IMG/VR virus record: IMGVR_UViG_2974670102_000001
Location: 64,001 to 128,000 of that record
Length of the DNA stretch: 64,000 bases
Source: a virus
Lineage: Duplodnaviria > Caudoviricetes
Strand: one strand, 5' to 3'
In this document: piece after piece, positions 1-56,616 of the stretch
How the letters are laid out: every line of letters begins with the position of its first letter
Numbering within the stretch: the first letter of the stretch is position 1
Notes under the pieces: generated by a model
Told to the model about the DNA's origin: nothing
Database searches by the model: none
The model's input: the letters and a program-made list of their open reading frames with translations, nothing else
Translations under genes and position numbers: made by a program

Positions 1-113
1 ATCTTCGACGACGCTACGTTAGCATCGATCTCGTCACAGAGGATTTCCGCAACGTGTTCATACTTCTGCTTGTGTAGTAGTTCAACTACTTGGTCTACGG
101 TACTGGGACTCAA
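1..113 (-). CDS. hypothetical protein, 5' part only (runs off window)
   Basis: AGGAG RBS then TTG at 113; MSPSTVDQVVELLHKQKYEHVAEIL... open to position 1. Confidence 0.55.
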   Translation of the reverse strand, partial: MSPSTVDQVVELLHKQKYEHVAEILCDEIDANVASSK

Positions 114-128
114 TGTCGCTCCTGATGT

Positions 129-157
129 GGAAAGGGGCCCGGTTTCCCGAGCCCCGT
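129..157 (-). terminator. intrinsic terminator after NAMPT
   Basis: GGGGCTCGG-GAAA-CCGGGCCCC then TTT on minus strand. Confidence 0.6.
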
Positions 158-163
158 TGCGTT

Positions 164-1630
164 TTACAGCACGATCAGGTCAGTGTTGTGCGCGTAAGGC
201 TGCGCAAACCGCTTTGCCAGTTCGGCCCCGGCTTCGGCCGCCGCACGCACCTCACTGAACGTCTGCTCGTTGAACAGCTTGCCGTCTTCGTAGACAGTGC
301 GCAGGATGTTTTCCCGAGCCCCGAGTTCCGACGACTGAATGACTTCGAGGATGCCGCTCTCGTTGCGGACCACCGCGAGGTGCCCCTTGAGCGACTTCTT
401 CGACGACGCAGTGATCGGGTCCTTCATAATCCCGGTCCATGCCTCGCGGCCATTCGTGACAGCACTTGCCTTCTGGGCGTGACCCAGTACATCCCGGTTG
501 GTGGCTTGAAGCAGTGCGCCACCCATGCCGAATGCTACGTTCTCGGCACTGAACCCATGGAGTTCGAGGGCCCGCAGAATCGCGATGATCGAATCACGGT
601 TCACACCGTCACCCTGAATCACACGCACGCTCGGATGGAGCACCTTGAAGCCCTTGCTGTTGGTCGTCGTCCCGAAGCTTGCGGCCAGCGACTTGACGCA
701 GTACAGCACCACGGAAACCGGGTCTCCCGAGTCCGGGCGAATGACGACACGCCCACCCTTCGACAAGACCTTCTCCTTCAACTGCTTGCCCCAGATGTTG
801 TCGACAGCATTGTAGATGTCGTATGCATCCGAGACGCAGGCATACACGCGCCCTTCCCCACCGAACTTGTCGATCATGTTCGAGTAGGCGTCGGCTTCGC
901 GGTCGCGACCCCACGAAGTCACCGTGAAGTGCTCCATGGCCGGGATCGAGAAACCAGCGGCAGTTTCGTCGTAGTAACGACGAGCCGCCACCAGTGCCGG
1001 AACCGTATCGGTCCCGAGGAAGTTCACGAGGTGGGCCATGCCACCCAGTGCTGCCGTTTGCACCGACGATGCGCCACGTGCTCCGAAGTCGTGCAGCATA
1101 AACTTAACTGCGGACTCAGGATCGTCACACGTGCGGTTGAGAAACGCGCGCAGGTCCTGCTTGATGTGCCACGAGAGCGTTGCGACAGCCGTTGCGTACC
1201 ATACAGCGCGCAACAGTCGCGTCTCCATGAACTGACCGAGTTCTGCGAGTCCCGGAGCCGTGTTCCGCACTTGGTAATACGGGACGTGGTTCGGGACGAG
1301 CGTACCCTCGGGCAGAGCCGAAATGCTCACGGGCGGAAGACCACCGTGCTCGTTGACGATACGCATGAACTGCTCGTACGGGAACGTTCCCGAGTGAGCC
1401 ATCGCGATATCACGAGCCTCTTCTACTTGTTCGCGCGTCAGCGGGTTTGCCACGATATTCCGCAACTCTGCCTGAAGGCCGAAGAAGATGGAAGCGCGGT
1501 ATTCCTTGTCCGACCGTGCCGAGCAGTACGACGATGCGAACTGGACTCCGGCCGGAAGCTGCTCCGAATGGCTCCATTTGTAGCTGTCGGTGTCGAGCGC
1601 GAACGAGATAGCGAGATTGGTATTTTCCAT
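164..1630 (-). CDS. nadV: nicotinamide phosphoribosyltransferase (NAMPT)
   Basis: Motifs DTDSYKWSH, HDFGARG, GTDT, IPAMEH, SDAYD, VIRPDSGDP, RVIQGDG, FGMGGALLQ; ATG at 1630 follows AGGAG. Confidence 0.95.
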   Translation of the reverse strand: MENTNLAISFALDTDSYKWSHSEQLPAGVQFASSYCSARSDKEYRASIFFGLQAELRNIVANPLTREQVEEARDIAMAHSGTFPYEQFMRIVNEHGGLPPVSISALPEGTLVPNHVPYYQVRNTAPGLAELGQFMETRLLRAVWYATAVATLSWHIKQDLRAFLNRTCDDPESAVKFMLHDFGARGASSVQTAALGGMAHLVNFLGTDTVPALVAARRYYDETAAGFSIPAMEHFTVTSWGRDREADAYSNMIDKFGGEGRVYACVSDAYDIYNAVDNIWGKQLKEKVLSKGGRVVIRPDSGDPVSVVLYCVKSLAASFGTTTNSKGFKVLHPSVRVIQGDGVNRDSIIAILRALELHGFSAENVAFGMGGALLQATNRDVLGHAQKASAVTNGREAWTGIMKDPITASSKKSLKGHLAVVRNESGILEVIQSSELGARENILRTVYEDGKLFNEQTFSEVRAAAEAGAELAKRFAQPYAHNTDLIVL

Positions 1631-1634
1631 GATT

Positions 1635-1693
1635 TGCAACTCCTGTTGCTGAAAGGTTGAGAAACCGTGTGCTCTTGCTCACGGGTACTACGG
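1635..1693 (-). promoter_or_regulatory. conserved two-hairpin 5' leader, copy 1
   Basis: CCGTGAGC-AAGA-GCACACGG hairpin plus GCAAC-AGGA-GTTGC hairpin over the RBS; same architecture at 3190-3250. Confidence 0.65.
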
Positions 1694-1707
1694 CACTGCT
1701 CACGCGC

Positions 1708-2031
1708 TCACTCTTGGAGTCGCGCTTCTTCTGACGGCAGGCCAATGTCTTTTGCACCGGCCGCCGCCAACTCCTTGATCCTGTTGATCGTTGTTTCCTT
1801 CATGGAGACATACGAACGCCTTCCGTCTTCCGTGCGCACGGGCACCAGACGCGACTTCGGGAACTTGTTGATAGCGCAGTCCATCGCATCGTGGATGATA
1901 GGTGTCGGGGCCGTTCGGAGACCACGACATGCTGCCTGATCCTTCGGCATGAACTGCCACGCAGGCGGCCCATCGATGATTCGGATTTGAGCGTTGTCCG
2001 GAAATTCGAAAGTTGCCACGCACACCCCCAT
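1708..2031 (-). CDS. hypothetical protein between the two NAD genes
   Basis: 107-aa ORF with its own sigma70-like promoter (TTGACT-17-CAGAAT, 2050-2078). Confidence 0.6.
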   Translation of the reverse strand: MGVCVATFEFPDNAQIRIIDGPPAWQFMPKDQAACRGLRTAPTPIIHDAMDCAINKFPKSRLVPVRTEDGRRSYVSMKETTINRIKELAAAGAKDIGLPSEEARLQE

Positions 2032-2081
2032 GAATTAAACAGTACAGCTATTCTGCCAGACTTCGGTCGATCAGTCAAACA

Positions 2082-3188
2082 TTAATCGACAGGGATGAGA
2101 TCGATCATCTTCTGGACGATGAAGAAGTGGTCGCTGTACATTTCCTTCGGGTCCAGCAGGCCGAGCGGCACCCACCGAACTTCCGCGAAGTCGTCGTCGG
2201 CCTTCACCTCGATCAGCTTCTCTGCGTCGTTCAGCAGGTACAGGTAGGCGTGCGTGACGATACGACCACGCGTCTCGCCACGGTTCGGGTCCGAGAACAC
2301 ATGCTTGAATCGGAAAGCCAGCTTCATCGTGTCACGGCTCACCCGAATGCACGTCTCTTCGACAGCTTCACGGCACGAAGTGTTGAAGATGGTTTCGCCT
2401 GCGTGGGCAAACCCACCCGGCAGCGCCCACAGGCCCTTGCCCGGATTGAACTTGCGTCGCCCCAGCAGAACGTGGCCACTCTGGATGATCACCGAGTCTG
2501 CCGTCGTCATGATCGGCGCGTAGCTCTTGCCCTTGCCATCGCGACCACGGTAGCCGTGCTCTTCCAGATACTCCTTCGAGAACTTGATCTCGGCGTTGAG
2601 CGCGTCGATCACGTCGAGGTGTGCCCAGCCCCAGTGTTTGAGATAGGATTTCACTTCCGGATGCACGAGTTCCGTGATATCCGTGATGCCCTGTTCCCAA
2701 CACTGACCGCCACCGAACAACAGGTTGCGGACCGTCGTTGCGTCCAGCACTTCTCCGTTGACATTGAAACTGTTGACGCAGCGCGAATCCCACTGCGGGA
2801 ACTTCTTCAGGTAGTAGGACGAGTCGTCCTTCGAGTGGCCGATCAATCGGACCTCGACCTCGTGACCGCCAGCCCGAATCATCTGCACGTAGCGGTCGAC
2901 CTCGCGATGCACGGCCGCCATCCACTTGAAGTCGTTCTCGTGGAGGAAGTCGTCCAGCGTTTCGAACGCGATCTTGCTCACATTCTCCTGCTCACCATAG
3001 ACGGCGCGAAGCATGTCGATCACTTCGCATGCGGTCCACGGATTCTTGACGGTGCGCGGACGGTTTGCCGAGCCCACCAGAACCAACGTCAGGTCCGAGA
3101 TCGCAAGACTCGTATCGATGATCTGCTGGTGGCCGAGGTGGAGAGGGCGAAAGCGGCCGATGAAGACCGAAAGTTTCTTGATGCTCAT
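2082..3188 (-). CDS. nadM: bifunctional NMN adenylyltransferase / ADP-ribose pyrophosphatase (NadM-Nudix, NatV-like)
   Basis: GRFRPLHLGH (HxGH), KNPW, GHSKDDSSYYLKKFPQW, Nudix box GGFAHAGETIFNTSCREAVEET, DPNR, ADDD, DH. Confidence 0.95.
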   Translation of the reverse strand: MSIKKLSVFIGRFRPLHLGHQQIIDTSLAISDLTLVLVGSANRPRTVKNPWTACEVIDMLRAVYGEQENVSKIAFETLDDFLHENDFKWMAAVHREVDRYVQMIRAGGHEVEVRLIGHSKDDSSYYLKKFPQWDSRCVNSFNVNGEVLDATTVRNLLFGGGQCWEQGITDITELVHPEVKSYLKHWGWAHLDVIDALNAEIKFSKEYLEEHGYRGRDGKGKSYAPIMTTADSVIIQSGHVLLGRRKFNPGKGLWALPGGFAHAGETIFNTSCREAVEETCIRVSRDTMKLAFRFKHVFSDPNRGETRGRIVTHAYLYLLNDAEKLIEVKADDDFAEVRWVPLGLLDPKEMYSDHFFIVQKMIDLIPVD

Positions 3189-3189
3189 G

Positions 3190-3250
3190 TGCAACTCCTG
3201 TTGCTAGTGGGTTAAAAGCGAGGCTCTTGCCTCACCTACTCTTTACTACG
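3190..3250 (-). promoter_or_regulatory. conserved two-hairpin 5' leader, copy 2, with upstream GTAGTAAAG motif
   Basis: GTGAGGC-AAGA-GCCTCGC hairpin plus a 16-mer AGCAACAGGAGTTGCA identical to copy 1. Confidence 0.65.
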
Positions 3251-3259
3251 GGGCCCAGT

Positions 3260-3493
3260 TTAAACCGAAACCCCAAGAAGTTCAAGCTCACCTTTCGTGA
3301 TCTTGATCTTCAGTCGCGTAACCGCCAGTTCCTTCTGGGCACTACGGATGTCGTAGGCCGCGCGGTACGAGATTTGGGACGATTCGTTGAGAAGGTCGAC
3401 GAGCGCCGTGGTGTCGGCCTCAAGCCCGACCTCGATGATCGAGAGTTTGCGCAGGCGGCGCTTCAGGATCGCGATCTTGAATTTCTTGAACAT
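3260..3493 (-). CDS. small coiled-coil hypothetical protein
   Basis: Co-directional ORF; promoter TTGACG-16-TAGAAT at 3527-3554; start uncertain (3493 or 3520). Confidence 0.55.
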   Translation of the reverse strand: MFKKFKIAILKRRLRKLSIIEVGLEADTTALVDLLNESSQISYRAAYDIRSAQKELAVTRLKIKITKGELELLGVSV

Positions 3494-3545
3494 ATGAAAA
3501 AGCCCCTGTGGTTTAGACAAGGGCTTATTCTACAGCAACAACGTT

Positions 3546-5444
3546 TTACGTCAAGTACTTCGTGGTGAATTGCGCCCACGTCATGGCTTTCGATCCAGCC
3601 TTCTCGATCTTGCCCACGAACTTCGCGCCTTCACGGTACAGCAGCACCGTCATCTTCGAGCCGTAGGGCACAACCGTGCCGCCCAGACTTTCGACTTTGG
3701 CCTCTTCGTCCTTTGAACGGTAGCTCGTCCATGCGACGTTGACGCCCGCCAACTTGGTGCCTGATGCCTGCTTCTTCTGCGGCAGATCGCCGTCGATCTT
3801 GATCATGCCTTTGAGCGGCCGATACCATTTGCGGAACTCATACACGCCCTTGACCAGAACTTCGATGGTGGCGTGTTTGAACCCACGAATCTTCCCGACC
3901 TCGTTCCAGATGCCGTGCCTGTCGAGGTTGCAAAGCGTTTTCATGCTCATGCCTGCCTCTTCAAGCTGTGCCAGTTTCCGGACACCCATACCGCCTTCGG
4001 TGAAGCAACCGCTTGCCACCATCAGGGACTTGAGCGAGACCGGAGCGCATAGCACACGCTTCAGTTCCCGCATCATCTTCGGCCACTGTGCCTTTCCGAA
4101 CTCGGCAATGCATCCAGCCTCGAACGCCGATGGCAGCGGCTGTGTCGCCACCTGCACCAACTTGTCGGTCGTCGTGATGCCCATATCGTACAGCTTGGCC
4201 AACGACTTCTCCGCGAACTGCTCGATGCCGAGCGTCGTGCAGAAGAAGTGCAGGCGACGCACGTCTGTCACCGTCGTGTCATTGTCGAGTGCATACACGA
4301 ACCGACCACGGAACTCATACGGGCCCGGGGGCGGCGTCCATGCCGCGCGCTTGACCGTCCCCACGATCTTCGGGATCACGTCGCCCGAGCGCAGAATCCG
4401 GACAAGCGCCCCCACACCGATACCCTTCTCCTTCATCCACGTTGCATTGTGGGCCGTTGCCTGCGTTACAGTCACACCGTCGATCTCAATAGGTTTGATC
4501 TTGATCTTCGGTTGCCAGCGGCCGAGGCGCGTCTTCTTCCACTGGATGGCAATCACCTCTACCACATCGGCGTTTGCTTCGTCATTGACCTTGAACGCGA
4601 ACATTCGCTTTGGCTTGTCCGCGCTATCGTAGTCCATCACGAAGTCCACGGGGCTCACAACAAACCCGTCCAGCCGGTATGGGCTCAGGTAGCGCGCCTT
4701 GTTAAGCTGCTCCGTCAGGTACGCAGCATCCAGCTTGTCCAGACGGCCATAGGTAACGACCTCGAACCCCCACGTGTCTGCGTTCTTGAGGCTGCGCAGC
4801 AACAGCGTTTCGTCCGCATTCGGGTATATGCCGAGCACGACCAGTGACACGTCCTTGAGAGCCCGTGACGACCACGACCGGTTGAACAGGCCGTTGACCA
4901 TAGCCCGTGCGTTCTCGAACCCGTTCTCACCTGCTGCCTGCTTGCTGTACTTCTTCTGGAACTTCTCGTCGGCCATCAGGGCTTCGAGGCGCAACACGGT
5001 CTGCGCCTTAGTCGGGATAGTGGCCGGGATACGCTTGTATTCCACCAGTTTCGGGATCAGGTACGACACGTCGCGCCCAACCTCACCGTCACCACGGGTG
5101 ATCAGCATTCTGGGCTTGCGGCCCTTATACACGAGTTGCAGGCTCGTGCCGTCCAGCTTAGACATCCCGAAGTACTTGGTGGTCGAGGGCTCGCGCTTTG
5201 CGAACTTGGGCACGTCTTCCGGATACGCCTTTTCCAAGCTTGGCATAAAGTGCACGAGTTCGACCGCTTCCTTCTCGTCCGCTATACGTACGCCAGTCTG
5301 GTCGAGTTCTTTCCAGTCCGGCGCACGTTTGCGAAGCTGGTCTTCGAGGTGATCGAATTCCGGATCGCTGATAATCTCCTTCTCTTCGTTGTAGTACGCC
5401 CACTTGGCGCGCACGTACAACTCCTTCATTTCAGAAAGCTTCAT
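3546..5444 (-). CDS. ligA: NAD-dependent DNA ligase
   Basis: Domain Ia (YY..ISDPEFD), KLDG adenylation motif, TRGDG, RLE, DGFVV, AFK, TAHN, RSGDVIPKI, C-terminal BRCT-like segment; ATGA coupling with upstream gene. Confidence 0.93.
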   Translation of the reverse strand: MKLSEMKELYVRAKWAYYNEEKEIISDPEFDHLEDQLRKRAPDWKELDQTGVRIADEKEAVELVHFMPSLEKAYPEDVPKFAKREPSTTKYFGMSKLDGTSLQLVYKGRKPRMLITRGDGEVGRDVSYLIPKLVEYKRIPATIPTKAQTVLRLEALMADEKFQKKYSKQAAGENGFENARAMVNGLFNRSWSSRALKDVSLVVLGIYPNADETLLLRSLKNADTWGFEVVTYGRLDKLDAAYLTEQLNKARYLSPYRLDGFVVSPVDFVMDYDSADKPKRMFAFKVNDEANADVVEVIAIQWKKTRLGRWQPKIKIKPIEIDGVTVTQATAHNATWMKEKGIGVGALVRILRSGDVIPKIVGTVKRAAWTPPPGPYEFRGRFVYALDNDTTVTDVRRLHFFCTTLGIEQFAEKSLAKLYDMGITTTDKLVQVATQPLPSAFEAGCIAEFGKAQWPKMMRELKRVLCAPVSLKSLMVASGCFTEGGMGVRKLAQLEEAGMSMKTLCNLDRHGIWNEVGKIRGFKHATIEVLVKGVYEFRKWYRPLKGMIKIDGDLPQKKQASGTKLAGVNVAWTSYRSKDEEAKVESLGGTVVPYGSKMTVLLYREGAKFVGKIEKAGSKAMTWAQFTTKYLT

Positions 5445-5669: not shown

Positions 5670-5921
5670 TTACACCTCTGCGTGTTCCTCGATGTACTCC
5701 GCAAACTGCTGCGGCGTCTGGAGCGTCACGGTCTCGGTGTTGTACTGCTCTTCACCGAAGCTCATGCTGAACTCGTCTTCGAGGGCCATCAGAAAGTCGG
5801 TCAGGTCGAGATCGTCGAAATGGTTCAGAAGTTTTGTGCCCGGAACCACGATCACCGCGTCGTCGCGCAGCAGGTCTTGGGCTTCTTGCATTACGACCGT
5901 CAGAATCTGATGAAAATCCAC
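5670..5921 (-). CDS. acyl carrier protein homolog lacking the phosphopantetheine serine
   Basis: Acidic 83 aa; DDLDLTDFLMALEDEF aligns with ACP DSLDxVELVMALEEEF; C-terminal T..Q...YIEEH. Confidence 0.8.
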   Translation of the reverse strand: MDFHQILTVVMQEAQDLLRDDAVIVVPGTKLLNHFDDLDLTDFLMALEDEFSMSFGEEQYNTETVTLQTPQQFAEYIEEHAEV

Positions 5922-5956
5922 TTGCTTGTTTCCTTTGCTTCGGTTGATGGTTGGTG

Positions 5957-15531: not shown

Positions 15532-15749
15532 GCCGGGTCCTTCACGTACTTTGGCGATTTCGGATTGCAGAGCGGGCACAGGTCCTGCCCCTCGCTCGCG
15601 TCGGGCCCGATCTTCCAACCATCGCGTCGTGCTGCTGCCTTGCAGCGCGCTACTGTATCTGCATCGAAGTACTCGTGTGGGAAGTAGTTGTACGGATGCT
15701 TGCGTCCCGAATCGCAGTAGAGCGCGATAGACGCGCCGCTCGCCATCAT
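15528..15749 (-). CDS. small Cys-containing protein (possible Zn-binder)
   Basis: YCD...GWKI...DLCPLC. Confidence 0.65.
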   Translation of the reverse strand: MMASGASIALYCDSGRKHPYNYFPHEYFDADTVARCKAAARRDGWKIGPDASEGQDLCPLCNPKSPKYVKDPA

Positions 15750-16207
15750 GATACCACCTTCGACAGCAGCTTGATTGCCCTGTCCAGCTTCGAGCCCTCA
15801 CGGCGACGGCTCGTCATTTCCGTGTGCTGGAGCACGAGGCGCAGTGCGTCGACCTCGACGGTGGTCAAAATCGTGATGGGGTTGCCCGTGGGCTTGGCCT
15901 TCCGGGCGATCTTGGACTTGGAGGAACTGATCCACAGATCGTCTCCATCGTCATCCAGCTTGGCCTGATACTTGATGGCGGCTTCACGAATCTCATCGAG
16001 CGTGAAGTCACTCAGCTTCTTCTTCGCCAAACAGGACTCACGGGTTGCCCACGCGTAGCGCAAACTCACCTTCGACGACTGCTTGTAGTTGATACCCGGG
16101 ATCAGGTACTCGGTGATTCCGCGCCCGATCTGGGGACCCGTCAGCCCTTTCAGTGCAGCGTCGAACGCGTTCATGCGCAGAACTACTTCATCGGTCACAT
16201 GTTCCAT
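15746..16207 (-). CDS. hypothetical protein
   Basis: Coupled ORF. Confidence 0.65.
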   Translation of the reverse strand: MEHVTDEVVLRMNAFDAALKGLTGPQIGRGITEYLIPGINYKQSSKVSLRYAWATRESCLAKKKLSDFTLDEIREAAIKYQAKLDDDGDDLWISSSKSKIARKAKPTGNPITILTTVEVDALRLVLQHTEMTSRRREGSKLDRAIKLLSKVVS

Positions 16208-51525: not shown

Positions 51526-51602
51526 GGGCGGTTAGCTCAGGGGTTAGCAGCGTTCGGCTCATAACCGAGGGGTCGCGGGTTCGAATCCCGCACCGCCCAC
51601 CA
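51526..51602 (+). tRNA. tRNA with CAT anticodon (Ile2-like or elongator Met)
   Basis: GGGCGGT/ACCGCCC acceptor, loop CTCATAA, GTTCGAATC, encoded CCA. Confidence 0.9.
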
Positions 51603-51658
51603 CACAGAATAGGAGGCAATCATGAGTAGATTCTAGTGAACCAACTGGAGGTGTTCTC

Positions 51659-51946
51659 ATGAAAGCAAAAGCGTTTTACCATCGTGTTTGTAACTACGGC
51701 CCGGGCGGCTACCACTGCCCGTGCTGTGGTCCCGCACCGAGCATGCGTCGTAAGGAGCGTCAGCAACAACGACGCAAGTTCCATCGACTGCTTGACGTTC
51801 TGGACAAGTTTGACACCGAAGTCGAAATCGAATACGACAACCTCGTGCTCAACGATTTCGACGACGAGCGTCACGACTACTACAACGGCTGGGGCGGTGA
51901 TCCCAGCCTGCACGATGAGTGGAAGGATTGGAAGAAGGCAGCTTGA
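51659..51946 (+). CDS. small protein with GPGGxxCxCC motif, Arg-rich then acidic
   Basis: GGAGGT RBS; YGPGGYHCPCCGP. Confidence 0.75.
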   Translation: MKAKAFYHRVCNYGPGGYHCPCCGPAPSMRRKERQQQRRKFHRLLDVLDKFDTEVEIEYDNLVLNDFDDERHDYYNGWGGDPSLHDEWKDWKKAA

Positions 51947-52010
51947 CCGTACTGCACCGCAAAGCCTTAGATGCGGTGTGCCGCGAGAACGTGAGCGGTG
52001 CAGTGCACCT

Positions 52011-52096
52011 GCCCGGGTGGCGGAATTGCTAGACGCGACGGACTCAAAATCCGTTGGCCCTAGGCCGTGTGGGTTGGAGTCCCACCCCGGGCACCA
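52011..52096 (+). tRNA. tRNA-Leu(CAA)
   Basis: GCCCGGG acceptor, ACGGA-CTCAAAA-TCCGT, long variable arm, CCA; atypical T-loop TTGGAGT. Confidence 0.88.
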
Positions 52097-52098
52097 TC

Positions 52099-52137
52099 GC
52101 GAGGGTGGCGAAATTGGTAGACGTGGCGAAATTGGTA
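52099..52137 (+). pseudogene. 5' half of a split tRNA-Leu with 15-bp D-arm duplication
   Basis: GCGAGGGTGGCGAAATTGGTAGAC then GTGGCGAAATTGGTA repeated. Confidence 0.8.
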
Positions 52138-52177
52138 ATCCCCAATTTTATTTCAGTAACCAACGTGGAGAAGATTC

Positions 52178-52888
52178 ATGCTAGAACTGAAAAACGACAT
52201 GCCGATTTTGGCCAAGAAGTTGTCCGGTGTGTATGGTCACGAGATTCGTATCATCGGGCCGTACGTGGACAAGAGAAACGGGCGTAAGCTCGTGGACATA
52301 AAGGGTGCGCCCCGTTCCTCGGGAATTAACAAAACCGTGCAGCTTGCACGTGCGCGCCTAGAAGTAAAGCTTGGTCGACGCCTTGTCGATGACGAGACTG
52401 TCGACCACAAGAACAACGATTGCACGGATGACCGTCCGAGCAATCTTCAGTTGCTGACGCACGCAGAGAACTCGGCAAAGCAGACGAAGGAAACGCGTAG
52501 TCGCTCGGCTGAAGCGTCTCGCACCGCCGAGGCGCGTTCCGCTAACAGCAAACGCAATACAGGTGAGAAGAATCAAGCTGCCGTCCTTACCGATACTGAA
52601 GTGAAAAGGTTTCGCACACTTTTCAGTAAGGGTAAAATGACGGTCAAGCAAATCGAAGATGCGTCGGAGTTGACAAATCGTTCGGTTCGTAATATGCTTG
52701 ACGGCCTGTCGTACAAAACGGCAGGCGGACCGCTCCGCATAGCAGGCTCTGTTGGTCGCGCATCCTCGTTGTCAGAGAAGCACAGGCAGTACATAGCGAA
52801 TCACGCAGAACTGTCAGCCGCGCAGATTGCAGAAGAACTTGACGTGAGTAGGTATGCAGTGATACGATACCGACGCACGCTTAACTAA
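52178..52888 (+). CDS. HNH homing endonuclease with C-terminal HTH modules
   Basis: ARARLEVKLGRRL...VDHKNNDCTDDRPSNLQLLTHAEN. Confidence 0.88.
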   Translation: MLELKNDMPILAKKLSGVYGHEIRIIGPYVDKRNGRKLVDIKGAPRSSGINKTVQLARARLEVKLGRRLVDDETVDHKNNDCTDDRPSNLQLLTHAENSAKQTKETRSRSAEASRTAEARSANSKRNTGEKNQAAVLTDTEVKRFRTLFSKGKMTVKQIEDASELTNRSVRNMLDGLSYKTAGGPLRIAGSVGRASSLSEKHRQYIANHAELSAAQIAEELDVSRYAVIRYRRTLN

Positions 52889-52889
52889 C

Positions 52890-52976
52890 GGGAGTGTGCT
52901 GGAATTGGTAGACGGAACGGATTTAGATTCCGTAGGCCGCAAGGTCGTGTGGGTTCGAATCCCATCACTCCCACCA
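52890..52976 (+). tRNA. tRNA-Leu(TAG)
   Basis: GGGAGTG/CACTCCC, ACGGA-TTTAGAT-TCCGT, long variable arm, CCA. Confidence 0.92.
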
Positions 52977-53006
52977 CTACACGAAATTTTAGTTAAAGGT
53001 ATTTAA

Positions 53007-53246
53007 GTGCCGCCAAGCATCGAACAGGTAAAACTTATACTCAGATCAGCAGCATTGTCTCCGAGCAGCAGTCAGTTGTCTATTTCTGGCTTTGACGATA
53101 TCATGAAGGCAGCAGAGGAAGCCTATTGTGGAGATAGCCGAGCCATGCTCACAAACGTCCGGGAAATTGCCTTGCAGTTTCCGGACAATACGATGATGAT
53201 GACGATTTTGGCGCTGTATTCTGAATCCATGCTGAGTATGCATTAA
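53007..53246 (+). CDS. hypothetical protein inside the split-tRNA insertion
   Basis: 79-aa ORF, lower GC than flanks. Confidence 0.5.
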   Translation: MPPSIEQVKLILRSAALSPSSSQLSISGFDDIMKAAEEAYCGDSRAMLTNVREIALQFPDNTMMMTILALYSESMLSMH

Positions 53247-53260
53247 GCGCAATCCCCACA

Positions 53261-53310
53261 GTCCTGCCGGTCGAAAGGCCGTGAGGGTTCGAATCCCTTT
53301 CCTCGCACCA
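53261..53310 (+). pseudogene. 3' half of the split tRNA-Leu
   Basis: Long variable arm GGTC-GAAA-GGCC, GAGGG-TTCGAAT-CCCTT, TCCTCGC-A-CCA pairs with GCGAGGG at 52099. Confidence 0.85.
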
Positions 53311-53404
53311 CTTTGGATTGTAGGCGTAAATCGAGCGGGACTTCCCCACCCACTCGATTAGGTATGGTACACCTTATAGACCGTCGCCTACAATCCAAAG
53401 TGGT
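53307..53404 (+). ncRNA. candidate structured RNA closed by a perfect 20-bp stem
   Basis: ACCACTTTGGATTGTAGGCG / CGCCTACAATCCAAAGTGGT with two internal hairpins. Confidence 0.55.
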
Positions 53405-53477
53405 TGTGGTAAAGATGTAGTGTGCTTTGCCTTTGAAGCGCGGGCGCTGTGGTTCTCAGGCCACGACAGCGCCCAAC

Positions 53478-53553
53478 GCCGGTTTAGCTCAGTTGGTAGA
53501 GCAGCGCCCTTGTAAAGCGCAGGTCACGGGTTCGAGCCCTGTAACCGGCACCA
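53478..53553 (+). tRNA. tRNA-Thr(TGT)
   Basis: GCCGGTT/AACCGGC, loop CTTGTAA, CCA; C-A mismatch at the base of the anticodon stem. Confidence 0.9.
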
Positions 53554-53574
53554 CTAAACAATAACAACGAGGTT

Positions 53575-53916
53575 GTGATGAATACGCATGAGGCTTACGA
53601 GATCGTCGATAGACTGACGCCGGTATCGGTCAGGAACCTCGAAGACGCGTACGTACGGTTCATGGAAATGGCGCTTCTGGTCGATCCACACCCGGAGACT
53701 GAAGACCGGGCCACACGGGATCGTGAGACATACACTGAATTCCTGCTACCGCCCGACGAGAACGGCAATCCCGTGATTTCGGTCCCGGGCATGCACCAGT
53801 TTCTGTCCAAGATCACGGGCCATCCACTACAAACCTGCGTAGCCTTCGACTATGTTGACTTCCATCGCGTGCACGGCACGACGGTAGAGGACGCGGAACT
53901 CGCTGGCTACGTTTAA
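53575..53916 (+). CDS. hypothetical protein
   Basis: GAGG RBS. Confidence 0.7.
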   Translation: MMNTHEAYEIVDRLTPVSVRNLEDAYVRFMEMALLVDPHPETEDRATRDRETYTEFLLPPDENGNPVISVPGMHQFLSKITGHPLQTCVAFDYVDFHRVHGTTVEDAELAGYV

Positions 53917-53925
53917 GGACGGACC

Positions 53926-54138
53926 ATGGAAGAAGACGCATACAGGTTCAGTGTGGCAGCGCTCAAAAGCGAGTACGACGCTGAACTGCTCGAACTGCGC
54001 AAGACAGTGCTTGAAGGTCGCGGTGACGTTGCTGGGTTTATCAAACTCAAGGAGTCGCTTGACTCAAGGCTGAAGGACCGCGTTAGCGCGGTTACTGGCG
54101 CACGCAGTCAAACACAGAACAAGTTGCTGTACAACTGA
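53926..54138 (+). CDS. hypothetical protein
   Basis: AAGGA RBS. Confidence 0.65.
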   Translation: MEEDAYRFSVAALKSEYDAELLELRKTVLEGRGDVAGFIKLKESLDSRLKDRVSAVTGARSQTQNKLLYN

Positions 54139-54144
54139 ACAAGA

Positions 54145-54221
54145 CTCCGCTTAGCTCAGCCCGGTAGAGTACGTGATTTGGGATCACGGGGTCGCAGGTT
54201 CAAATCCTGTAGCGGAGACCA
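54145..54221 (+). tRNA. tRNA-Pro(TGG)
   Basis: CTCCGCT/AGCGGAG, CGTGA-TTTGGGA-TCACG, CCA. Confidence 0.92.
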
Positions 54222-54239
54222 CACAACATAGGAGGTGTC

Positions 54240-54590
54240 TTGGAAACCACTTACGACTACAGCCTTACGTTCGACCTGACTGACATCATCGTGTTCGTTC
54301 TGATCGCGATCATGATCAAGATGGTCATCGACATCGTGCGTGAGCGCATGCGAATACGCAGGCTCCGACGCGACATGGGGGCAAACGGCAATCTTCCGTG
54401 CATCACGATCTCGGGTAACGACGATGTGTCGATCTCGGGTCTTGTGTACGAAGGGCGGCCCATCCCCTCGGTCGATATCAAGAACAAAGCGCTGTTCGTC
54501 GACGGTCAGTTCAAGCGCCGCCTCGCCCGCAACAGCCGTGTCTACAACCGTGGCATCGGAATCTTCGCGGACGGCAAGTACATGGGGTAA
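54240..54590 (+). CDS. single-TM membrane protein
   Basis: AGGAGGT RBS, TTG start, N-terminal hydrophobic helix. Confidence 0.7.
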   Translation: METTYDYSLTFDLTDIIVFVLIAIMIKMVIDIVRERMRIRRLRRDMGANGNLPCITISGNDDVSISGLVYEGRPIPSVDIKNKALFVDGQFKRRLARNSRVYNRGIGIFADGKYMG

Positions 54591-54594
54591 TACC

Positions 54595-55059
54595 ATGCGC
54601 AGTATCTTTCACATTTCGGTCGGCTCCGATAACTGGAACCCGACCGAGGACGAACTTGCGGGCATCGTCCGCAAGTTCAAAGAACTGGAAGCAAAGCAGG
54701 GTCAGCGTCAACAGCTTCCCGATACCCGCAAGATCATCCACATCAGTGTGGGTGCTGAGGATTGGACGCCTACCGCAGACGAACTGTTGGCCATCGTCAA
54801 TCAGTTCCAGTATGCAGACCTCGATCCGCTCGGTGGGTGGATTGCGACGCGTCACGGTATCAAAGTCACTGACATCGAGACCGCCGCACAGCCCACGCTG
54901 GTGGTGAACGGCACGACCCACGAAAGCGAGGCTCGTGCTTCGCTACGTCAGGACTCCATCGACCGGCTTGAGGCCATCCGCGAAAACCTGCGTACGTTCA
55001 AGCTGAGCACGCTCGATGTCGACACACTGATCAATCGGTTGTCGACGTATCAACTTTAA
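54595..55059 (+). CDS. protein with two tandem HISVG..W.PT.DEL repeats
   Basis: SIFHISVGSDNWNPTEDELAGIV and KIIHISVGAEDWTPTADELLAIV. Confidence 0.75.
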   Translation: MRSIFHISVGSDNWNPTEDELAGIVRKFKELEAKQGQRQQLPDTRKIIHISVGAEDWTPTADELLAIVNQFQYADLDPLGGWIATRHGIKVTDIETAAQPTLVVNGTTHESEARASLRQDSIDRLEAIRENLRTFKLSTLDVDTLINRLSTYQL

Positions 55060-55080
55060 CCGAAAAGCTTAGGACAACAA

Positions 55081-55512
55081 ATGAAACAACTCAACACGCA
55101 ACGCCGCTTCGAATGCCTGACACCGGAAGGTACATGGGTCTCCGTGCACTGGGAGCAACTGGAACCGGGCGACATGATCCGCCTCCTGCCCGCTGTCGGC
55201 ATCACCGAGGACGTTCCGCCGACCGACGTATTCGTCGTCATGGACACGCCTACCGTGAACGTGCGTTCGGTGAACGAAATCCGTGCCGAACAAGCAGCCG
55301 CAGCGCAGCGTGAAGCGCTGGCCAACACGGAAGGTGTCGATGCTATCCAAGCAGCGCAGCGCGATATCGACGCAGCCGTCGAGCAGATGAAGCCGGTAAC
55401 AGAGGCCGTGGCAAAGGTGGCGCACGCAGTAAAGGCCAAGAAGACGCCGAGCCCGAAGGTTCCGGCACCGGCACGCAAGCCGCGCACGCGCAAGGTCGCG
55501 ACGCCGAAGTAA
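55081..55512 (+). CDS. hypothetical protein with basic tail
   Basis: AGGA RBS. Confidence 0.7.
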   Translation: MKQLNTQRRFECLTPEGTWVSVHWEQLEPGDMIRLLPAVGITEDVPPTDVFVVMDTPTVNVRSVNEIRAEQAAAAQREALANTEGVDAIQAAQRDIDAAVEQMKPVTEAVAKVAHAVKAKKTPSPKVPAPARKPRTRKVATPK

Positions 55513-55624
55513 TGGCCGTGTAGTAAATAGGTTGGGTGAGCGCGGAAACGCAATCCCCAATTTGAGTTGTACAGAAAACTAGTGCTGGTTGCCGGATGCA
55601 GTTGTTACCCGGAACAGCACACGC

Positions 55625-55714
55625 GGATGGGTGCCCGAGTGGCTAAAGGGGGCAGACTGTAAATCTGCCGGGCCTCAGTGTCCTACGTTGGTTCGAATCC
55701 AACCTCATCCACCA
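55625..55714 (+). tRNA. tRNA-Tyr(GTA)
   Basis: GGATGGG/CTCATCC, GCAGA-CTGTAAA-TCTGC, long variable arm, CCA. Confidence 0.93.
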
Positions 55715-55767
55715 GAACATAAGCAGGAGCCCTGAGCATCAGGGCATCAGGGCAACAAGGAAAAGCA

Positions 55768-56049
55768 ATGCCGATTAAGCCGCTGTATGACAAGGTGGTG
55801 GTGCGTACCACCGACACAGACCGTACGACTGTAGGGGGCATCGTGATCCCCGCTGCTTCGCTCAAGGCGAATCAGGCTGTCGTGGTCGCTGTCGGTGACG
55901 GCCACCTTATGCAAGACGGTACGCTTCGACCGCTGTCCGTGAAGGCAGGCGACGTTGTGTACCTCTCGCATGAAGGCTCCGAGATCGAAGTCAACGGTGA
56001 AAAGCTTCGCGTCTTCATCGAAGGCGATCTGATAGGAGTCCTCAACTAA
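55768..56049 (+). CDS. groES: GroES/Cpn10 co-chaperonin
   Basis: IKPLYDKVVV, TVGGIVIP, VVAVGDG, PLSVKAGDVV, EGDLIGV. Confidence 0.93.
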   Translation: MPIKPLYDKVVVRTTDTDRTTVGGIVIPAASLKANQAVVVAVGDGHLMQDGTLRPLSVKAGDVVYLSHEGSEIEVNGEKLRVFIEGDLIGVLN

Positions 56050-56058
56050 GCAGTACAT

Positions 56059-56135
56059 TCCCCGTGAGCAAGCTAGGCGACTGCACCGGACTGTTAATCC
56101 GGCATTGCGTGGTTCGAATCCACGACGGGGAGCCA
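56059..56135 (+). tRNA. tRNA-Asn(GTT)
   Basis: TCCCCGT/ACGGGGA, CCGGA-CTGTTAA-TCCGG, G-CCA. Confidence 0.9.
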
Positions 56136-56139
56136 ATCA

Positions 56140-56242
56140 TGAATAGGTCATGAGTAAGGCAGATCACTCAATCCGGAAACTCAAAAGGTAATCCGGGTAG
56201 CAATGAGCATCCTGTAAGCCGAGACGATGATTGACTTATTCA
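56140..56242 (+). ncRNA. candidate structured spacer RNA
   Basis: 11-bp closing stem TGAATAGGTCA/TGACTTATTCA with internal hairpins; fills the whole tRNA-Asn to tRNA-Phe spacer. Confidence 0.5.
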
Positions 56243-56244
56243 GA

Positions 56245-56320
56245 GCGCGGGTAGCTCAGTTGGTAGAGCACCGGACTGAAAATCCGGGTGTCGCTGGTTC
56301 GAGTCCAGCCCTGCGCACCA
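56245..56320 (+). tRNA. tRNA-Phe(GAA)
   Basis: GCGCGGG/CCTGCGC, CCGGA-CTGAAAA-TCCGG, CCA. Confidence 0.93.
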
Positions 56321-56322
56321 GC

Positions 56323-56438
56323 GTTGTGATCGAGTGAAAATCGTAGGAAGGGGCCGATTACCCTGACCGCAATCTGTAGGTGGACCGGCTGGCCCTCATC
56401 CTGCTAGTGTAGATTTTTCCCATGTGGTTTCGATCAAC
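56323..56438 (+). ncRNA. candidate rod-shaped RNA
   Basis: Four nested stems: TGATCGAG/TTCGATCA, GAAAATC/GATTTTT, GTAGGA/TCCTGC, GGGCC/GGCCC. Confidence 0.5.
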
Positions 56439-56539
56439 TAATCATTGTGTGGTTGTAGCGCACTAAATCAGACGGCCGGGCTCCGGAGCCCGCGTACCAT
56501 ACCACCCCGGATGGAAACCGTTGAATATTCCGGGTCGAT

Positions 56540-56616
56540 AGGGGTGTAGCCAAGTTGGTTAAGGCAACGGATTTTGATTCCGTCATGCGTAGGTTCGAAT
56601 CCTACCGCCCCTTCCA
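56540..56616 (+). tRNA. tRNA-Gln(TTG)
   Basis: AGGGGTG/CGCCCCT, ACGGA-TTTTGAT-TCCGT, CCA. Confidence 0.92.

Follow-up and report, generated by a model that had tools for sequence, protein, structure and literature searches.

Each of the two genes for nicotinamide adenine dinucleotide (NAD) salvage in the DNA analysed here, nadV (nicotinamide phosphoribosyltransferase) and nadM-Nudix (nicotinamide mononucleotide (NMN) adenylyltransferase fused to a Nudix domain), is directly preceded by an mRNA leader of two hairpins, the second of which carries the Shine-Dalgarno (SD) sequence. The analysed stretch, hereafter the window, comprises bases 64001-128000 of the 262,653-bp IMG/VR jumbo-phage record IMGVR_UViG_2974670102_000001. 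With moderate confidence, we regard the two leaders as divergent copies of a widespread, uncatalogued two-hairpin mRNA leader located directly 5′ of nadM-Nudix and nadV start codons. An earlier note on this DNA had put the two leaders forward as a candidate for a new cis-regulatory RNA, and this proposal is supported by the identification of a conserved, structured and uncatalogued element common to both genes. In the family as a whole, the two hairpin structures, their conservation, their specificity for this gene pair and their fixed position before AUG are directly observed. The motif is compact (~55 nt), supported by covariation and tied to the same two genes across phyla, and therefore represents a concrete object for experiments.

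Two hairpins before nadV and nadM-Nudix

Both genes and their leaders lie on the minus strand of the window, with nadV at 164..1630 (ATG 1630; 488 aa; Pfam NAMPT_N + NAPRTase) and nadM-Nudix at 2082..3188 (ATG 3188; 368 aa; Pfam CTP_transf_like + NUDIX). The same architecture had been claimed for both leaders, and all of its elements were found on this strand in one order: CGTAGTA, a C-G-closed AAGA hairpin, UUUU or UUUC, an AAC-containing linker, the 16-mer AGCAACAGGAGUUGCA and AUG. The nadM leader (3250->3189) starts with the CGTAGTA box (3250-3244), which is followed by hairpin 1 (3235-3218; GUGAGGC / AAGA / GCCUCGC, 7 bp with one G.U pair, then UUUU), the linker UUUUAACCCACU with its U-run and AAC, and the 16-mer (3205-3190), within which hairpin 2 (3204..3191; GCAAC-AGGA-GUUGC) holds the SD in its loop and 3′ arm and ends 2 nt before AUG. 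The nadV leader (1692->1631), delimited by sequence and fold, consists of the CGTAGTA box (1692-1686), hairpin 1 (1684-1665; CCGUGAGC / AAGA / GCACACGG, 8 positions with one A.A mismatch), the linker UUUCUCAACCUUUC between the hairpins, the 16-mer (1650-1635) and 5 nt that separate hairpin 2 from AUG. Hairpin 2 of nadV, with GCAAC at 1649-1645, an AGGA loop and GUUGC at 1640-1636, is the same as that of nadM. The gap between the 16-mer and AUG is 1 nt at nadM and 4 nt at nadV, and the distance from the hairpin-1 loop to AUG is 36 nt and 42 nt, respectively.

The predicted fold of the identical 16-mer with the SD in its loop was recovered in the RNAfold minimum-energy structure of both leaders, which consists of the two hairpins (z -3.14 for nadM and -1.10 for nadV). 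The 16-mer has two matches in the 64-kb window at <=3 mismatches and two matches in the whole 262,653-bp genome at <=2 mismatches. A genome scan for 5-bp hairpins with an SD-like loop likewise located such a hairpin beside a real start codon at nadM and nadV only, and one further look-alike was discounted since no open reading frame (ORF) lies behind it. The claim that no other gene in the window has this leader can thus be extended to the entire genome. Hairpin 1 was also considered alone as a repeat family, but hairpins with AGA-ending loops are not enriched in the genome (35 found versus ~41 in shuffles), and this idea was rejected. The structural conservation of stem 1 that the earlier note had read from the two copies required a different basis: the two stems have GUGAG in common and differ little, so they cannot prove covariation by themselves, whereas the conservation is real once relatives are aligned.

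The GTAGTA motif, which had been counted as part of the shared architecture, does precede both leaders but is not a general feature of the family, recurring in only some of its leaders, including those of the unrelated phage loci L073, L097, L109 and L067. CGTAGTA is over-represented in the window (9 copies versus 2.6 expected); the remaining copies lie inside genes on the opposite strand, and a wider signal was dismissed. A promoter scan found no promoter directly upstream of either leader, its sigma-70-like matches being located only ahead of the small upstream ORFs. Because no promoter lies directly upstream, the two leaders are probably intercistronic, like the element before the second cistron of bacterial nadM-nadV operons.

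Conservation, covariation and distribution of the leader family

The nearest named relative, Ralstonia phage phiRSL1, shows 73% nucleotide identity across the NAD genes. Its nadM leader (GTAGTA, CGGGAGCC-AAGA-GGCUCCCG, UUUU, UAUCC-AGAGA-GGAUA, AUG) has the layout of the nadM leader in the window, and its nadV leader is a shorter version, with AACCC-UAGA-GGGUU followed by UUUCC-AGAGA-GGAAA. In phiRSL1 and eight further jumbo-phage genomes, the element was found before nadM and nadV alike, with different stems. A common plan with quite different stems also emerged from 17 IMG/VR loci with a NadM relative and from the nadV genes of 10 of those genomes: a hairpin with an AGA-ending loop (AUAGA, AGAGA, ACAGA or GUAGA) and an SD hairpin between this loop and an AUG 31-38 nt downstream. 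NadV relatives had to be collected with alignment A4 as the query; a single NadV protein query retrieved none. The geometry of hairpin 2 is constant in the family, with a stem of 5-7 bp, a GGAGN loop and a 3′ arm that abuts or overlaps AUG, and the conserved unpaired letters are those of the hairpin-1 loop, a CA after stem 1 and UAAC in the linker. The family loop of hairpin 1 is mostly AUAGA or AGAGA, whereas it is the 4-nt AAGA in the window and likewise 4 nt in phiRSL1; the 4-nt AGGA loop of hairpin 2 in the window also differs from the family GGAGN. Both copies in the window agree with the family description of a C-G- or G-C-closed, purine-rich, GA-ending loop, an SD hairpin with a 5-7 bp stem 0-5 nt before AUG and a position before nadM or nadV with the hairpin-1 loop about 31-38 nt from AUG. 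Lineage-specific hairpin-1 loops were observed as well, namely GUUGA in Variovorax (L185, L188) and GGAGU or GGAGA in several alphaproteobacteria (L208, L212, L234), the alphaproteobacterial GGAGA being identical to the SD loop of hairpin 2.

The covariation test proposed for the nadV and nadM upstream regions of relatives was performed on three sequence-anchored alignments, all gapless within the hairpins. MAFFT applied to entire leaders put the stems in the wrong places, so equal-length loop-anchored windows were used. In 14 loop-anchored sequences, 77.9% of the hairpin-1 cells were paired, compared with 47% after shuffling, all 8 pairs changed on both sides, and the covariation score was 0.744 versus 0.229 shuffled (reached in 0/500 shuffles). 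The larger alignment A5 (33 leaders) gave 83.6% pairing in hairpin 1 and a score of 0.860 versus 0.244 +/- 0.027 shuffled (0/500), with slid controls scoring 0.06-0.23. For hairpin 2, alignment A7 (38 leaders, anchored only on the invariant GGA) gave 93% pairing and a score of 0.876 versus 0.213 shuffled (0/500). Both stems of the leader family therefore covary strongly.

A covariance model, R2, was built from A5 and applied to 80 of at least 587 IMG/VR nadV loci, 60 nadM-centred loci and 80 bacterial nadV loci from GTDB. In three complete phage genomes of 220-256 kb, it returned exactly two strong hits each (31-46 bits), corresponding to the nadV and nadM leaders, the next best match scoring <=18 bits. 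At E<0.01, the model matched 52 times in the 80 phage nadV loci, each time on the coding strand, and the match terminates at the nadV ATG except in three cases, which lie before adjacent genes. Among the 62 hits in the 60 nadM loci, 31 precede nadM, 27 precede nadV and 4 precede small ORFs (105-117 aa) that match no Pfam family. The bacterial loci gave 37 hits, again all on the coding strand and just 5′ of nadV or the adjacent nadM, in genomes that include Thiothrix, Campylobacterales, Caulobacter, Lysobacter, Marinicella, Cellvibrio and a cyanobacterium, and bacterial nadM-nadV operons carry one leader copy before each cistron. The motif is accordingly present in orthologous leaders, and R2 hits are nearly confined to nadM, nadV and a few small ORFs instead of preceding unrelated genes at large. 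The sensitivity of R2 is limited, since eight NadM-adjacent loci without a hit still show two hairpins by eye, and the lineage-specific loop variants described above are missed. In three unrelated phages, the leader precedes a conserved 105-108-aa protein without a Pfam family (L171:1155-1478, L173:772-1086 and L179:903-1226, plus strand), these proteins having in common a motif around NHTDGC-W-YE; it also precedes two other small ORFs, in L151/L069 (117 aa) and L073 (81 aa). Next to the NAD genes in the window, no small ORF is a homologue of these leader-bearing ORFs.

The transcript context was assessed in 46 distinct phage nadV leaders, of which 20 have a canonical TTGACA-17-TAnnnT promoter upstream. 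In 13 of these 20, 6-10 nt separate the end of the -10 element from the hairpin-1 stem, and transcription would then begin 0-3 nt before hairpin 1, inside a conserved AAAG.

The comparison with Rfam 15, also suggested in the earlier note, placed no family on any leader. Only tRNAs passed the gathering thresholds in the window; in a search of the region of the two leaders at E<=10, the sole match with E<1 on a leader was STnc400, whose 25 bits fall far short of its threshold of 80; and in 20 relatives (E cut-offs between 1 and 10) no family lay on the leaders either. The models of NAD+ riboswitch classes I and II matched neither the leaders in the window nor those of the relatives, and a full-text literature search for nadV or nadM together with a riboswitch or RNA motif returned nothing relevant. 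RNA-level control of the NadV/NadM-Nudix pathway is undescribed in phages or bacteria, and the leader can serve as an annotation marker for the NAD-salvage regulon.

Probable translational control and competing explanations

The leader likely acts on translation initiation, because the element is repeated for each cistron, its register with AUG is fixed and the SD lies inside hairpin 2. The presence of one copy per cistron in bacterial operons similarly argues for control of translation rather than transcription, and the translational control proposed at the outset fits both observations. The element would act in cis on each cistron separately. That the loop is conserved while the stem varies freely suggests recognition of the loop by a reader; such a trans-acting reader would bind the hairpin-1 loop, probably also the similar loop of hairpin 2, and would lock hairpin 2 over the ribosome-binding site, limiting the synthesis of both enzymes together. 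This reader would most likely travel with the genes and be NadM-Nudix itself, which would result in autogenous feedback. The phyletic pattern makes NadM-Nudix the leading candidate, since every bacterial genome in which the motif was found also encodes this protein. In the set of 80 bacterial genomes, NadM-Nudix is encoded in 27/27 of those with a motif-positive nadV leader (26 adjacent, 1 elsewhere), and none of the 30 genomes in which the NadM query found no match carries the motif at nadV (Fisher p = 2e-7, uncorrected for relatedness). Two bacterial genomes with unlinked genes have the motif at nadM and none at nadV. This pattern is compatible with the suggestion in the earlier note that NadM-Nudix could be the reader. 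Operators of comparable design are the thrS operator of Escherichia coli, recognised by threonyl-tRNA synthetase (ThrRS), and the gene 43 operator of phages T4 and RB69, in which one or two hairpins stand beside the SD of the protein's own mRNA, the loop is recognised and the stem must only pair. Neither has sequence or structural homology to the leader, and here the putative operator is shared by two different genes and occurs in phages as well as bacteria.

Taken as a whole, the explanation that we favour, in which divergent family copies mediate translational repression of each cistron through a trans-acting reader of the loop, most likely NadM-Nudix, appears to us about evenly balanced between being right and being wrong. 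Several observations weigh against it. The leaders in the window score weakly with R2: in the 64-kb window, the nadV leader ranks first but with just 13.3 bits (E 0.57), and the nadM leader is absent from the matches at E<=10. The nadM leader of phiRSL1 scores 12.8 bits, whereas genomes of the same phage group (G001 and G003) reach 40-46 bits. A hairpin-1-only model, R1, carries too little information, giving no hit in the phage genome at E<=10 and scores of 15.7 bits (nadV) and 7.1 bits for the two leaders. Because the model scores are weak, we place both copies in the family, at its divergent edge, by gene context and orthologous position, architecture and spacing rather than by a significant model score; their divergent traits are the 4-nt loops (AAGA and AGGA), G+C-rich stems and the U-run after hairpin 1. 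Two other weak R2 matches in the phage genome (159857-159908, minus strand, and window 15716-15750) were set aside, with no ORF behind either. The copies in the window are, moreover, probably intercistronic, whereas the hairpin is 5′-terminal in many relatives. The association with NadM may come from shared descent of an operon cassette instead of from a reader, and the phage sample cannot discriminate the NadM link, since 77/80 phage NadV records also have NadM. Finally, the hairpin-2 stems are short, and a looped SD could aid rather than hinder translation.

Further readings were weighed on the same data. A direct sensor of NAD status common to phages and bacteria is one that we entertain tentatively. 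The RNA would be a riboswitch of a new, minimal class or else a switch that NadM-Nudix reads; in the latter form, NAD+, NMN or ADP-ribose bound at the active sites of NadM-Nudix would determine its grip on the two purine loops. If this were true, the phage could sense how far host defence has depleted NAD and tune its rebuilding enzymes to it. A small riboswitch in the strict sense, in which direct binding of a pathway metabolite (NAD+, NMN, ADP-ribose, nicotinamide or phosphoribosyl pyrophosphate) to the leader would open or close hairpin 2, seems to us rather improbable. A universal ligand would explain why the leader is so strictly tied to two enzymes of a single pathway in phages and in several bacterial phyla, the conserved unpaired letters of loop, CA and UAAC agree with this idea, and the leader matches no known family. 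These unpaired positions are nevertheless few for an aptamer, no internal loop or junction is present, and pairing of the loop with the linker or the 3′ arm of hairpin 2 (a pseudoknot) was seen by inspection in some leaders but not consistently. The hairpin-1 loop also drifts by lineage (AUAGA, AGAGA, GUUGA, GGAGU, AAGA), and nadV lacks the motif in all 30 bacterial genomes where NadM was not found, which a ligand sensor would not predict. NAD+ riboswitches of class I (nadA motif) and class II (pnuC motif) are similar in being cis-acting leaders before NAD-metabolism genes, and class II also hides the SD; the present leader differs in its genes, nadM and nadV, in its far fewer conserved unpaired positions and in that no internal loops or pseudoknot were found. 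A constitutive element is likewise unlikely, though it deserves some weight. Hairpin 1 would then be a 5′-proximal stabiliser against 5′-end-dependent decay and hairpin 2 would present the SD for a fixed rate, with no reader and with spread by cassette travel. This is consistent with the 13 promoter-bearing phage leaders in which hairpin 1 would be at the very 5′ end of the mRNA, and with the weak hairpin-2 stems that leave GGAG unpaired. Against this, a conserved loop would be unnecessary in a stabiliser, yet its terminal GA persists in different phyla on freely varying stems; the element stays within one pathway despite the hundreds of genes in phage genomes; and it lies inside the transcript in bacterial operons and probably also in this phage.

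Recognition by a global purine-loop RNA-binding protein of the host, of either the CsrA/RsmA or the PyrR type, is very unlikely in our view. CsrA/RsmA sites comprise a GGA hairpin loop over the SD and a second upstream hairpin within reach of the dimer, and hairpin 2, an A(A/G)GGAG loop over the SD, resembles them. Hairpin 1, however, usually has AGA and not the GGA that CsrA requires, and the motif occurs in Caulobacter and in a cyanobacterium, lineages that to our knowledge lack CsrA. A global regulator of any type would also not account for the restriction to nadM and nadV, that is, to one pathway. The PyrR binding loop (RF00515) is the closest known look-alike, with a covarying stem and a C-G-closed AGAGA-type purine loop in an mRNA leader, and many hairpin-1 copies read C-AGAGA-G. 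PyrR is a dimer derived from an enzyme, nucleotides control its binding to RNA, and the consensus of its site is ARUCCAGAGAGGYU (PMC7430163). Both hairpin-2 copies of phiRSL1 (L003:4222-4262 and 5862-5925, minus strand) contain UCCAGAGAGG, the core of this consensus. Even so, RF00515 gave no hit at E<=10 on the leaders in the window, those of phiRSL1 or typical AGAGA-loop leaders, and no type-I phosphoribosyltransferase domain was found in the phage. The nadM/nadV leader also lacks the purine-rich internal bulge of the PyrR loop, has AAGA and AGGA loops in the window, adjoins SD and AUG without an anti-antiterminator, and belongs to NAD salvage rather than pyrimidine synthesis. A signal in DNA or transcription, that is, a terminator of the upstream small ORF, a phage promoter based on the GTAGTA box or an NrtR-like palindromic operator, can likewise be regarded as very unlikely. 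In its favour, UUUU or UUUC comes after hairpin 1 in both leaders of the window and in the nadM leader of phiRSL1, and at nadM the GTAGTA box is separated from the stem by 8 nt (9 nt when taken as CGTAGT), close to the -10-hexamer position of relatives. A scan for terminators (G+C-rich stem and >=5 U in 8) called neither hairpin 1, the tails being UUUUAA and UUUCUC, and most family members have no U-run. The spacing of the box to the stem is only 1-2 nt at nadV. The NrtR operator is a 21-bp DNA palindrome with a conserved GT-N7-AC core (PMC2330246). No such core was found in register here, and the two copies differ in their arms while keeping an asymmetric loop, which is the opposite of a palindromic operator. 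All phage hits and 37/37 bacterial hits lie on the coding strand, also contrary to a DNA signal.

NadV and NadM-Nudix are reported to make up the NARP2 route, by which phages rebuild NAD+ against NAD-depleting defence (bioRxiv 10.1101/2024.02.11.579819; PMC13464706). No evidence supports the idea of the earlier note that the leader turns on salvage as NAD is drained by host defence: chromosomal copies of nadM/nadV in Thiothrix, Caulobacter, Lysobacter, Campylobacterales and other bacteria have the same leader, which therefore looks like a general control of the NAD-salvage pathway carried along by phages. Further study of it could uncover a new small riboswitch or, in a well-studied enzyme, a new ability to bind RNA.

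Neighbouring genes and related sequence data

All neighbouring features described here are on the minus strand unless stated otherwise. A 107-aa ORF (2031->1708) lies upstream of the nadV leader, and a small ORF (ATG 3494, end 3260) lies 5′ of the nadM leader. Ahead of them are two sigma-70-like promoter matches, TTGACT-17-CAGAAT (2078->2050) before the 107-aa ORF and TTGACG-16-TAGAAT (3554->3527) before the small ORF; both are matches to the consensus only and belong to the context, outside the motif. A terminator-like 10-bp hairpin with a U-run (3526-3500) follows the latter match immediately, just 5′ of ATG 3494. A gene for an NAD-dependent DNA ligase with adenylation and OB-fold domains (5498->3546) adjoins the upstream edge of the NAD-salvage cluster; this NAD consumer has no leader copy.

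An activated-sludge metagenome run, which may be the source sample, contains DNA near-identical to window 1-3600 (0.85 of the sampled words), as do three small runs from 2023, all belonging to one study (0.78, 0.41 and 0.32 of the sampled words). The covered parts of the leaders in these near-identical runs showed no differences. The sole RNA run with a match contained a 32-nt conserved piece of nadM from another organism. Elsewhere in the window, a cluster of nine tRNA genes is located at 51526-56613 on the plus strand, all exceeding the Rfam gathering score.

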